IMG/VR virus record: IMGVR_UViG_3300023035_000005
Span: 92,708 to 156,707 of that record
DNA length: 64,000 nt
Reading direction: 5' to 3' (one strand)
Origin: a virus
Shown here: piece by piece, positions 1 to 6,000 of the stretch
How positions within the stretch are numbered: the stretch's first letter is position 1
How the letters are laid out: each line of letters begins with the position of its first letter
Program-made: the position numbers and the translations under genes
Notes under the pieces: generated by a model
What the model saw: only the letters and a program-made list of their open reading frames with translations
Told to the model about the DNA's origin: nothing
Databases searched by the model: none

Positions 1-6
1 CTCTTC

Positions 7-79
7 ACTCAGCTAAAAAAAAGAACACAAAAACAACCGCAGCATGTTCTGTCATAAATCCACTAACTAATTCAGATTC
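7..79 (-). CDS. nad1: nad1 exon 3, followed by another intron from about position 6
   Basis: [24 protein letters not shown]+T. Confidence 0.9.
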
Positions 80-3000
80 CTGTTGTGGTTTAACAGAGGG
101 TGGCTCCTCCGAAGGAAGGAAAGCTCCCTCTGAAGATTATGTGAATTAGGAAAATTCAATTGATATAGAGGTGACGATAATTATTAAAATCTTTTTAATA
201 ATTATGTCGACTAGACATAAGAGAGTGTTGGATTTGATTACGCGTCATAATTTATTTAGTTATAGGTTTAAAATAATAAAGATTTTTGTATATAAGCTCA
301 GAATTTAAATATTTACCTACTGTAACTTTATAAATACTTAAATGTTTAGCTAATTCTACATTGTTTTTAAATTTTAAAATTAAATTACCATTTAAATCAA
401 ATATTCCTACTCCTAAGTTATATTTATTTTTATTTTCACTCATTATAGCCTTGGTATTCTCGGTATGACTTTTACCATACATAGGATTTTTACTACCTGG
501 TTTACTGATTTTTAATTTAGATTCCTCAGTATGTTTATAACCCAAATTATTATGGGCGATAAGACTAAAATTATATAAAGTATTGAAATCAAATTTTGAT
601 ATATAACTAGTTTCTAGTTCAGTTAATGATTTATGACTTATAATTTTACTTTCATATGTAAAATACTCATAAATATATAATTTAAACTTATCTATACCAT
701 ACTTGACAAAGGCTTTTTGCATGGCTACATTTGAATTATTTTTATACTTTAAATGTTCATTAATTCTAATAAAAAAGTCTTTAGCACTACCAATGTATTG
801 CTTATTATTAATAGTGTTTACCAAAGAATAAATACCACCTTTTCCCTTTAATATATCCTTATATGATTTTATACCATCTTTGTCGAGCTTCGCACTAAAT
901 CTAGAATTAAAATCGGCTTAGGCCCAGGATAAGAACCTAAATGTGAAGGAGAATTAGAAGAATAATATTTACGACTATAAATTAAAGAGTTATCTAAAAG
1001 AGTTAAAGGTAAAATACCCCTACGCATATAACTAAATGAATTCTCAAATTTTACTAACCTAGATTTCACACAATTAAAAAAAACAAAAATGGGGGGGATA
1101 TAAAACCCCTATATGCTGGTAGGAAAAGGGACATAAAACTATATTTAATTTTGTATTGGTTTAAACCGATAAATTTTATTATATATCAGACCCGAATTTA
1201 AATACTTACCTACTGTAACCTTAGAAATACCTAAATGTTTAGCTAACTCTACATTATTATTAAACTTCAAAATTAAGTTATCATCTAAATCATAAATTCC
1301 TACACCTAAAGGATATTTATTCTTCTTTTCACTCATAATCGCTTTAGTAGCTTCACGATGTTTTATACCAAACATCGGATTTAACTCACCAGGTTTACTA
1401 ATTAAAGCTAAGGCTTCTTCAGTATGAGTTTTACCAAACATAGGATGATTATTTTTATCCTTATAATAACGAAAATAAGATAAACAATAAGAAGATTAAA
1501 CTTTAGAACACCTAGCCACCGAACATGGTCAAACCTCACTCGCACTCACTCTTTCATTTACAAAAATATTCAAAATAACTTACCGTAGGGGTCTCCGAGA
1601 TAACTTAAACTCAACTTTATTTGAGTCAAACACGGTTACTCCTTTGTTCAACTTAGCATTTATAGTTTGCGGTGCAATTTTAAAGTAATCAGCGCAGGAT
1701 TGGGAATCCTTAAATATTCTAAATTTTTCTGATACCTGAGAGGATAAGCAAGCTCGCGAAGCAGGAACAACCTCTTCAGCTAAAATATAGAAAAGCTGTC
1801 GTTTAACTAGCGAACCGCCTGTTAAAGAATTTATTCGTAAGCCATCTTGATTTATTACATATATATCCTTCATATTTATTACTTCATTCACCAGGTTCGA
1901 AGATATTCCCCTAATCTCCTCCCCTCCGGGAGATACGAAAGTATCGCTGCTTTCTATATGTTTAAATGAAGATAAACGGTAGTTATTCATTCTTCTACTC
2001 ACCTTAATTATTAACTCTTTACCTAATTTTGTTAGATGTTTTCCTTTATAAATTAAAGAAGCAATAAACACTCAATCTAAGAAATCTTTATATTTTTTTG
2101 AAGCAAAACTAAGGTCAGATAGAAAGGGTATAAGTGTATCCACTATATAACTTAAGTGGTTAATATGGAATTGAACCACGAGTTTACCTTTAGTTGTGCA
2201 TTTACCCTTATCATAAATAGAAGTTCTTTGACTAATTATTTCTAGATATTGAGAAGATGCTTTTAATTTTACATCCTCTATCCCATAAGAATCTAAAAAT
2301 TCTTTAATCGCATGAACTAAAGGGGCTTGAACAAAAGTAAGCCCAAGGCTGAAGGAAATACTTATATCTTTTGTATCGACAAGTGAGAAACAACCCTCTC
2401 CCTCCAGAAATCCTAAGAATCAGTAAGGAGTTATTCTTATTGTATGAGTAGAAGGCATTACAAAATCCACTCTTTTACTATTCATCTGACCTTTTAAGTC
2501 AGTTATTAACTTTAATTTTTCAGACATAGATAAAGATTTGTTAAATTTTATAGCAACTGCTTCTTTAAATCCCAAGTACTCTAAGTACTTTGTACCATTT
2601 AAAGGGAATTTATCAAACATAGGTATTAAAATATTTTTGATATCGTTAATCCTCTTCACATTCAGATGAACAACCTTTTTAGATATATAAATACTACCAC
2701 AATTCAATCTATTTTTTATAAACTCTAAAACACCAGTGTCATCAATATGAACCCCAATAGTTAATATAAAACTAATAGTATTTCCTTTAGAAATATCTAT
2801 CAAAAAACATCCCTCACCATCTACAAAACCTACAAATCATTCTAAAAATTCAGATTCCGTCATATCTCTAAATCTAACTTTAATATTGCTTAAATTTGAT
2901 GTATTTTTTAAAATAAGTTCATCTTGGTCACTACGAGACAGCGCAGAACTACCTTTTGTACTAAATATAAATCCTTTATTTTCCATTTTTTGTATAAATT

Positions 3001-6000
3001 TTTAATTACCTCCGTAGAGGATAGGGTTTTGTAAAAATCCATTCCATTTTACAAAACCTAACTCAGGTTAGGTTTTGTAAAAATCCATTTTACAAAACCT
3101 AACTCAGGTTCGCACTGAGTATTCGGAGGTTGAAGCTCCATGTTTTACCTGTAAACTATACTCTTAAAAAAGCATAAGATGTACTCAATTCATCGCAACA
3201 GCTGTGTGTTTCTATAAAAAAAAGTACATCACTATAAACTTTTGGTGACAAACACCAAGGAGTAGAATGGCACGGATAAGTATTAAGGTGTATAATTGAA
3301 AGAGGAGGGAAGAGAGTGGGCGAATTCAACCATCTTTAATTTGGCTTCTTCTGTATGTTTATAACCTAAAGAGCTTGTAGCTGTAGCTTTAAAATTCTAA
3401 AGATTATCAAAATTAAATCTCTTAATATAACTAGTCTCTAGATCAGTTAAAGCTTGATGACTTATAATTTTACTTTCATATGTGAAATATTCAAATATAC
3501 AAAATTTCAATTTATCTAAGCCATACTTAGCAAATGCTTTTTGCAAAGCCAGATTAGACTTCTTATTTTCCAAATGTTCATTAAGTCTTAAATAAAAATC
3601 TTTGGCGCTTCCTATATATTGATTGCCGTTTACTGTATTTATAAAAGAATAAATACCTCCTTTGTCTTTTAAGAATATTCTATAAGATTTAATACTATCT
3701 TTATCATTTAGATTATTAATAGTTAAAACTGGAAGAGGTAAATCAGATGATTGTAAATCAGAATTTGAAGTAGAATAATATCTATCACTAGCTTTCGTAC
3801 CAACTTTTCATCTAGATATTGTATAAAGATAACCACAGTTTGTAAGAACTAAAGGGTTCGCACCAATGGTAGAAACGCTACTATAGTTCAGCATATATGA
3901 TCCCATTTTTTATTAGTTGGCATTTACAAGCCAATTTGGACTATACCTTATCTAATATAAATACTTATATTAAATGATCACGTCTAGTCTCTGAAGGGTT
4001 TAACATTATATGTTAACTTCCCTGCTGATTGTCCTATTCTCTAATTAGGGTTTTCCAGCAATTTGTGATCTTTAATGAGACCAAATCTTATTAGTAGCCT
4101 CTGCTAAATCAATATCTATACTATCTAAGCATTCACCTTAGGTTTTCCAACTTGTCTTAACTAAAATATAGCTAAGGTTGTTCAAGGGATAGCAAGGTTG
4201 TAAATAATAGAGTATGAACATTCAATAGTTACATACTACAAACATATTTAGCTGTACTACCTTGCTTTCCCTCTTTTCTGCGAAGTAAACCACACAGAAA
4301 ATTTTATTTGGTGTATTTATTCATAATACTTTGAATATTTTTAAGATTATTAAATTGTTCTTCAGTCCATTTCCTCCGAAGGCGAAGATTTGCTTTTAAT
4401 TATATCAGCTGCTTTAACAAAAGATACGAAATCGGATTGTTTAGCGCTTTGAAGAGGATATTTTAGGAAAAAAGGTATAATTATATTATTCAAGATCTCG
4501 AAATTATTTAACTTCAAATCGACAGCATCGTTGTTTCTTTTTTTAACACTACCGCAACCTAAATAAGTTACTATTCTTTCCATTAGCAAAGTATCTCGGG
4601 AATGCTGAGTTATTTGAAAATGTAATCAAACCTTATAACTACTAGATAACTCAGGAGCCAGAGTGGACCTTTTCTCTACAGTAATAATATTAAAGCTACC
4701 TTCCCCATCTACGAATCCTACTACCCATTCAGGATGTATTTCTCTTTCCGGTACTTCTGGTCTCGGTTCGGGAACAAGATTTGGATATAATTCCTTCAAT
4801 TCTTCAGATATCCCTTTATTCAAATAATATCTAAGATTAAGAATCTTCATGAACCCTTGTTCACTTAAAGAGGGTTCCTCTTTAATAATTAATATAATTT
4901 GTCTAAATAATTCGAAGTCAGCATATTTTTTAGTTAATAAAGGATATGCAAGGAAATGAGGTATAACTTTCTCAAGTATATCACTTAGTTTACTAATAAT
5001 TAGCTTAGCGAAATTTTTATCGAAACTTATTACCCCTACGCCTCCAAAATACTCCTTAATACGATATAAAATATCTAAATCACGGGAATTCAATTTAATT
5101 TGAAAAACAGGTTGTAATTTTCAACCTAACCTGTATGCTTTGACTTTCGAAATTTTTATCACGAAGGATCCCTCACCATCAGTGAAACCTGTAATTCACT
5201 CAGGGTGAAGTAAAACCTTATTATGGGAATTTGTGGAACTATAGTGTCTTCTGGCTGCTGGTAATTTTCCCGCCCGTTCATTAAGTACGGGTTGCAATCC
5301 GTAAAAGAAACAAATTAAATCTCTAATAATATTCAAAATATAATTACAAATGTATATTAACATAAACATTGTAATTTTAATAACTTTAGCTGTAATATAG
5401 TTGCTAGCGAGGGCTGTGGATTTGTGACGATTAGCCTCTGCAAGATCGAAGGGCGGCCGATTAGTTTCTGCAATAGAACCTATAAAAAATATTATAAATA
5501 TAGGTAATAAAGGTAATATAAATCAAACAGCTCTTTGTGATTCTACATTTACAGTTAGATTTAAACTACCTGTTAACATAATTACTAATAATAAAGCTGA
5601 ACTTAATATTAGTTCATAACTAATTAACTGAGCAGTACTTCTAAGTGAACCTAAAAAAGCATATTTACTATTAGCACTTCCAGATTTGTTATTTTAATAC
5701 ATTTAATATTAATCCCGCACCTCGCGGTGCGGCTCAGACTAGGTTATGATCTATCTAATTTTTGTAGAATAGACCCCGAATACTCGTGGCAGCAAATTTA
5801 TATCTGCTAGTCGTTGAACGTTCCTCGCTGAGCGTGGTTTCGCTTCAAGTTGACTTAATATAATAAGTTATTCTTGAAATTCAATCGGTTTATTCTTAAT
5901 TACTCTCGCAATTAAGGGGCTTATCTTTTTATTTATTTAATGTGTACGCAACATGTATACGAAGAAGTGGCCACCTACAAGAAAAAAAAATACATTTTTT

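Follow-up and report, generated by a model that had tools for sequence, protein, structure and literature searches.

The DNA analyzed here (the window) comprises 64,000 nt, positions 92,708 to 156,707 of IMG/VR virus record IMGVR_UViG_3300023035_000005, and carries on its minus strand a fungal mitochondrial nad1 gene read with genetic code 4. Between nad1 exons 2 and 3 lies a group I intron at nad1 position 636, a widespread insertion that reaches 5353 nt here. Very probably, this intron has a single ribozyme core with a mobile LAGLIDADG cassette at its 5′ edge, the distal 5′ splice site being productive and the proximal copy of the exon end being a relic of the ancestral site. The cox1-nad1 gene order and the nad1-636 intron are compatible with Pezizomycotina, and the one organism name obtained from homologue clusters was that of a Juglanconis (Diaporthales). 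An earlier note on this DNA had described two copies of the exon end around a LAGLIDADG open reading frame (ORF) and one guide sequence, and all of its nad1 coordinates were verified on the minus strand. The features are as follows.

5433..5680, minus strand: nad1 exon 2, from a Pfam NADHdh match and the ORF listing; its last 15 nt are the distal exon end
5447-5433, minus strand: distal exon end GATCTTGCAGAGGCT, the probable productive 5′ splice site
4350..5432, minus strand: LAGLIDADG ORF, 360 codons plus stop, in the frame of exon 2
4111..4349, minus strand: non-coding tail of the ORF cassette, 239 nt, containing a conserved block TGCTTAGATAGTATA; delimited by alignment of ORF-bearing lineages
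4096..4110, minus strand: relic exon end GATTTAGCAGAGGCT (GAT TTA GCA GAG GCT), the ancestral 5′ splice site, P1-competent
4077..4088, minus strand: internal guide AGATTTGGTCTC, with P10 half AGAUUU (4088-4083) and P1 half GGUCUC (4082-4077); from the Rfam alignment and covariation
3917..4102, minus strand: group I core P1–P9 (RF00028)
80..3916, minus strand: 3′ part of the intron, with terminal G at 80, GIY-YIG ORFs and a nested insertion
1..79, minus strand: start of nad1 exon 3, GAA TCT GAA TTA..., in which GAATCT (79-74) pairs with the guide (P10)

Exon 2 ends ACT AAT CGG CCG CCC TTC GAT CTT GCA GAG GCT, with its final base at 5433. When both strands of the 64-kb window were searched with the 15-mer, allowing at most two mismatches, just two matches were found (5447-5433 and 4110-4096; 0.12 expected), and two matches were obtained in 0 of 100 shuffles. 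On the nad1 strand between positions 1 and 8400, GAGGCT occurs solely at 5438-5433 and 4101-4096 (0.63 expected). The two exon-end copies around the ORF and their single guide are thereby confirmed, as are the pairings proposed for the guide, each of 6 bp: P1 (GAGGCU with GGUCUC, with a U·G at the cleavage site) can form with either copy, and P10 joins exon 3 GAAUCU to AGAUUU. The relic and the guide are separated by 7 nt. Across 69 related loci P10 covaries, guide TGATTT occurring with exon 3 GAATCA and guide TGACTT with GAGTCA, and the terminal G is present in 69 of 69 related introns. The group I hallmarks of a P1 with U·G, a P10, and a terminal G (position 80) are all present in the window intron.

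The exon-end repeat is short, which is what could be said for its being a chance match or an assembly artefact, yet there is almost no likelihood of this, given two matches against 0.12 expected, a position directly before the guide, and an arrangement kept in 13 lineages and in independent assemblies. Related public metagenome loci are designated here by L-numbers and the window by WIN; three further public assemblies (L088-L090) have the same arrangement as the window, which excludes an assembly artefact.

The ribozyme core was located by a match to RF00028 at 4102-3917 (score 65.1 bits, with a gathering threshold of 50; E = 4.3e-15; alignment to model positions 1-253), and the P1 of this match starts at the proximal copy. 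Annotation anchored on the ribozyme would in consequence misplace the end of nad1 exon 2 by 1.3 kb in the downstream direction. The second core in the window, at 5964-5715, is that of intron 1. Even with a permissive limit of E ≤ 10, separate Rfam scans left both 4103-5440 and 1-3920 without a group I match; the single-ribozyme claim of the earlier note, against which a separate core within 4111-5432 would have spoken, therefore survives. The length of the inserted block and the presence of an ORF with ~240 nt of non-coding sequence behind it do resemble an ORF-bearing intron, and 5432-4111 might be taken for a separate tandem or nested intron with its own ribozyme, that is, for part of a twintron. 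This is very improbable: a twintron calls for two cores and there is only one between 5432 and 80, excision of 5432-4111 would put DLAEA twice into Nad1, no well-placed upstream U or terminal G exists for an alternative that preserves the frame, and the entire block is missing from ORF-less sister introns.

Those sister introns came from a pattern search over the splice site, guide, and P3 start, which identified 68 public metagenome loci. In ~55 of the 68 there is no ORF, and the true exon 2 (..AETNRAPFDLAEA, always with GAGGCT) adjoins A..GATTTGGTCTC. Exon 2 of these loci ends NRAPFDLAEA and is followed by the usual nad1-636 P1 hairpin, with loops of 7-35 nt; the junction of the L038 type reads ..TTTGATTTAGCTGAGGCT up to the splice site and ACTAAT.. 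after it. Since exon 2 sits at the position of the relic in the ~55 ORF-less loci, the proximal copy corresponds to the ancestral 5′ splice site. Pairwise comparison placed the right-hand edge of the cassette at the relic. Cores of ORF-bearing introns and their ORF-less sisters are 88-95% identical, and the nearest core relative of each ORF-bearing core is ORF-less (WIN and L038, 89%; L001 and L038, 94%; L005 and L045, 95%), indicating that presence of the ORF is polymorphic among close relatives, as expected of a mobile ORF. Single core and ORF-less sisters together bear out the proposal that a homing endonuclease gene entered the exon end with its own exon-end copy and borrows the resident ribozyme. 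Two loci considered as long pseudo-copies of the exon, L016 and L069, proved to have a corrupted nad1 exon 2 directly adjoining the intron, with no ORF insertion.

The ORF at 5432-4350 matches Pfam PF00961 (E = 2.7e-56) over two LAGLIDADG_1 domains in an open frame, and both of its ..GF.DGEGSF motifs are intact, each closed by an acidic residue. There are 593 homologues, many of them fused to NADHdh, and homologue contigs repeat the order seen in the window: distal exon end, ORF, tail, relic, guide, core. The presence or absence of the ORF in near-identical introns and the exon substitutions linked to it give indirect support to mobility of the predicted endonuclease. The conserved TGCTTAGATAGTATA block of the tail was considered as a decayed piece of exon 2 and rejected, its identity of ~52% with gaps being indistinguishable from chance in AT-rich sequence. 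Locus L007 (3222-5940) has two tandem LAGLIDADG cassettes between the distal site and the guide, and its guide reads GGCCUC, not GGUCUC.

The cassette that we propose would consist of a substitute for the last 15 nt of exon 2, an in-frame ORF, and a 239-nt tail, and would have been placed upstream of the original exon end, a 15-nt relic of which survives directly before the guide. Nad1 would then require pairing of the distal GAGGCU (5438-5433) with guide GGUCUC (4082-4077) across 1.35 kb, and the ORF would thereby be carried in an enlarged P1 loop. Translation of the unspliced precursor can yield the endonuclease joined to an N-terminal portion of Nad1, so that proximal splicing is not needed for expression of the ORF. 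The relic, still able to form the same 6-bp P1 locally, may compete as a 5′ site. An endonuclease gene would in this way colonize the edge of a ribozyme by bringing a copy of the exon end, and the original splice site would become a decoy.

The distal GAGGCT is kept in 13 of 13 ORF-bearing lineages (11 distinct exon ends were tabulated, and L091 and L093 were added); intron-less relatives have GAA GCA or GAA GCT at the same point. Of 41 haplotypes, 30 have a Watson-Crick seventh P1 pair, between exon position −7 and the base following GGUCUC, as against 38% expected (permutation p < 1e-4, a value that, like all lineage counts given here, ignores shared ancestry). Among the ORF-bearing forms, 10 of 13 haplotypes can pair their distal −7 base with the guide, as A-U, C-G, or U-A. 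RNAalifold applied to 10 ORF-bearing lineages returned an outer helix composed of the distal exon end and the guide, in which 7 of 8 pairs were present in 10/10 lineages and the covarying −7 pair in 7/10. Covariation of the distal −7 base with the guide through three pair types argues for the distal site as the productive one. The proposal that distal splicing gives Nad1 thus holds up, on the conserved GAGGCT and the −7 covariation.

Public sequencing runs (X1-X4) contain assembled Logan contigs of relatives. These contigs, 90-99% identical to the window, include the junctions 7947 to 5680 and 5433 to 79. Run X2 contains the joint of 79 with 5433, and run X4 a joint of 79 with 5460 that has an AT-type RPPFDLAEA exon end; the exon joints in X2 and X4 may come from intron-less alleles. 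A joint of 79 with 4096 is not listed in the relatives' assembled contigs, which represent other organisms and so are neutral on proximal splicing here. Contig depths are per contig, and isoforms cannot be ranked from them.

The substitute exon end is distinguished by its codons. A 27-nt stretch before the distal site, which includes the 15-nt exon-end copy, has GC-shifted codons; the Leu codon is CTN in 8 of 11 ORF-bearing and 3 of 22 ORF-less exon-end haplotypes (p = 0.0014), and the 21 nt before GAGGCT contain on average 12.5 G+C bases with the ORF and 9.9 without it. The earlier idea of a recoded replacement is accordingly upheld insofar as GC-type codons track the ORF, but not for RPPF, which had been regarded as unusual: the ORF-less L037, L075, and L060 read RPPF too, making it a lineage trait. 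Three other ORF-less loci, L042, L062, and L063 (splice sites at ~4604, 2279, and 5673 of the oriented loci), have a GC-type end, CCGTTCGATCTCGCAGAGGCT before the splice site and ATGATTTGGTCTC after it. Such ends may have been left behind when recombination of one exon-end copy with the other removed the ORF, or they may represent the donor type.

Segments within the insert are complementary to the exon ends and to one another. Three were delimited.

5404..5415, minus strand: guide-like segment AGCCCUCGCUAG, in the linker of the ORF, 16-28 nt past the distal site
5393..5400, minus strand: 5′ strand CUAUAUUA of a candidate closing helix (RNAalifold)
4123-4116, minus strand: 3′ strand UAGUAUAG of the candidate closing helix, inside block TGCTTAGATAGTATA

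The segment at 5415-5404 can pair with both exon-end copies, its pairing with the relic being 2-7 kcal/mol better than that with the recoded distal end. No other stretch of the 1.3 kb forms as good a duplex with the relic (−12.0 kcal/mol, median −6.2 kcal/mol), and L001, L003, and L021 likewise have their best score at this position. In the RNAalifold consensus of 10 ORF-bearing lineages, the closing helix was paired in 9-10/10 at 7 of 8 pairs and in 7/10 at the outermost pair. The combined long-range duplex outscores all control windows in L091, L001, L021, and L076. Taken as a lead only, the complementarity of 5415-5393 with 4123-4096 might close the ORF loop, helping the distal site to reach the guide and covering the relic. 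It would be a considerable further step, and we consider it improbable, that the distal end, 5415-5404, the relic, and the guide form a four-strand switch that sets the ratio of Nad1 to endonuclease mRNA. If such a switch existed, two local hairpins would lead to proximal splicing, nested pairing of the distal end with the guide and of 5415-5404 with the relic would lead to productive splicing, and lineages losing the masking partner would have to mutate the relic in order to disable it.

The same segment bears on how the cassette arose. Possibly, although we would not favor it, the ancestral duplication took in a complete P1 hairpin, with loop and guide as well as exon end, and 5415-5404 is the decayed guide of the donor copy. 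A complement of GC.GAGGCU lies 16-24 nt past the distal site, a normal P1-loop distance, and is present in WIN, L091, L003, L021, L005, L092, and L093; on the distal side, moreover, L005 repeats the first 13 nt of the intron (CUUUGGCGGGUUA against CUUGGUCUCGUUA). Yet the segment is coding (motif x-L-A-x), and protein constraint may account for it; its register is shifted in L001, and it is missing from L055, L047, and L081.

The state of the relic differs among the ORF-bearing lineages.

Intact GAGGCU: WIN, L091, L001, L003, L021, L055, L047
CAGGCU with a 6-nt deletion: L005, L018
GAGGCC, with the cleavage-site U replaced: L081-87
Lost: L076-80, L007, L093

The relic is thus intact in 7 of 13 ORF-bearing lineages and mutated at critical positions or lost in the other 6, a pattern more in keeping with a relic than with a maintained switch. 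We infer from this distribution that the proximal copy is a decaying by-product. The GAGGCC of L081-L087 lies ~35 nt before the guide; its helix with the guide is stronger, and the U·G wobble is gone. In L047 (3360-3400) the relic, AUGGAUUAGUG-AGGCU, is paired without mismatch over 11 bp, in a hairpin, with the loop sequence that follows it (CACUAAUUCAU), and it contains the host-specific ATG codon of PMDLAEA. A hairpin upstream that would sequester the window relic was not found, the local minimum free energy (MFE) fold giving a hairpin of relic with guide. We found no correlation between the state of the relic and the integrity of the ORF. Homing into ORF-less alleles not long ago could account for retention of the relic in seven lineages. 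The window relic is a plausible competing 5′ site in this folding model, and its use would yield an mRNA with the fusion ORF at its end and no means of making Nad1.

The earlier note had gone further and proposed alternative splicing. If this were maintained as a switch, distal splicing would give Nad1 mRNA and proximal splicing a stable mRNA for the fused endonuclease, and the relic would be kept for that purpose. An identical 6-bp P1 at both sites, a proximal P1 that is the local MFE hairpin, and retention of GAGGCU in 7 lineages in which the upstream part of the relic decays are what one would expect of such a switch, and the use of a relic 5′ site reported for Podospora nad1-i4 points the same way. 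We regard it as unlikely, because the ORF is translatable from the precursor without splicing and because the relic has undergone U-to-C replacement at the cleavage position (L081-87) or G-to-C replacement (L005/L018), is lost in L076-80, L007, and L093, and is hairpin-locked in L047, several of the ORFs in these lineages still being open; homing in the recent past could equally have kept the relic in place, as the host's ATG codon in the L047 relic illustrates.

Five points weigh against reading the locus as a mobile cassette with a productive distal site and a decaying relic. The hexamer of the relic is kept in 7/13 lineages while its flanks decay, possibly through selection on it and not through recent origin or renewal by homing. 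The neglect of shared ancestry applies to the seventh-pair p-value and to every lineage count used above. The closing helix shows almost no covariation. The long-range duplex in the window beats 145 of 157 control windows, 12 being equally good. Finally, the contigs with exon joints come from relatives only, and use of either site in the window itself is a prediction. The 13 lineages make up a natural series of decoy states (intact, cleavage base mutated, hairpin-locked, and deleted) that would be useful for studying how group I introns choose between rival 5′ sites and what a decoy costs.

The closest likeness is to intron 4 of nad1 in Podospora anserina, a 'biorfic' (two-ORF) group I intron (Sellem et al. 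1996 Genetics 143:777; Sellem and Belcour 1994 NAR 22:1135 and 1997 MBE 14:518). Presence of an ORF in that intron is reportedly tied to clustered substitutions in the adjoining exon. The two-ORF form is also said to splice by four routes, of which two run through an alternative 5′ site regarded as a remnant of the ancestral one-ORF form, and use of the relic 5′ site was reportedly detected by reverse transcription PCR. By description, the window intron shares with nad1-i4 an optional exon-fused ORF with a tail, of 239 nt here, and reportedly also the clustering of exon substitutions, the relic of a 5′ site, and a GIY-YIG ORF farther downstream. Compared with nad1-i4, the window intron is much larger (5353 nt) and contains more nested insertions. 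By analogy, and if the reports on Podospora hold, the window would represent a further, more elaborate case of the Podospora-type arrangement. For Podospora nad1-i4, PMC4964425 describes one- and two-ORF forms and transfer of the optional ORF, with about 292 bp downstream of its stop, into the ORF-less or one-ORF form, and Edgell et al. 2011 (PMC3073962) cite Sellem and Belcour 1994, 1997 for alternative group I splicing.

A second comparison is provided by PpLSU3 of Physarum polycephalum, the intron encoding I-PpoI (Ruoff, Johansen and Vogt 1992), in which a natural distal alternative 5′ site is used with one guide and is possibly linked to expression of the intron protein (PMC10136302). Both are mobile group I introns with an endonuclease gene and two 5′ sites per guide. 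PpLSU3 differs in being an IC1 intron of nuclear ribosomal DNA whose distal alternative skips 63 nt of exon, whereas in the window the distal site would be the productive one and the proximal site a leftover. In Allomyces atp6 (said to have been described by Paquin et al. in 1994) and Ophiostoma rps3 (likewise, by Sethuraman et al. in 2009), endonuclease genes reportedly carry a replacement coding end. These cases resemble the window in the in-frame fusion to the host gene and in a displaced end that occurs twice, one copy with altered codons. In those genes, however, the duplicated part is the 3′ end of the gene and no splicing is involved; here the duplicated end is a ribozyme substrate, and two candidate splice sites result. 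In core creep, an ORF is gradually extended through intron sequence (Edgell et al. 2011, PMC3073962; Mukhopadhyay and Hausner 2021, PMC8393795); the fusion in the window would, in contrast, have arrived with a cassette carrying its own exon-end copy.

Beyond the cassette, L089 and L090 agree with the window at every base between 8337 and 4000, but from there to the end of the contig, inside the ribozyme core, they differ from it sharply (window 3999-3804); the break marks a boundary of recombination or else a branch in the assembly. In L088, from 10248 onward (past window position 1), exon 3 runs on and then loses frame, and a LAGLIDADG ORF lies ~1.1 kb beyond, indicating at least one further nad1 intron past the edge of the window.

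The 3′ part of the intron contains further mobile modules. A GIY-YIG ORF (3906-3397 and 1441-1145, minus strand) is interrupted by a 1856-nt insertion at 1468-3323, which holds a second LAGLIDADG ORF (2986-1580) and a tRNA-like element (3159-3102; Rfam tRNA, 30.7 bits), and a second GIY-YIG ORF is located at 824-252 (minus strand). Contigs in X2 and X3 join 1467 to 3324 at ~99% identity, so that close relatives exist without the 1468-3323 insertion. In contigs of X1 and X4, 81-1123 is replaced by an A-rich stretch of 18 nt (X1) or 16 nt (X4) and 80 is joined to 1124, which suggests that 81-1123 is another optional module, at the 3′ end of the intron.

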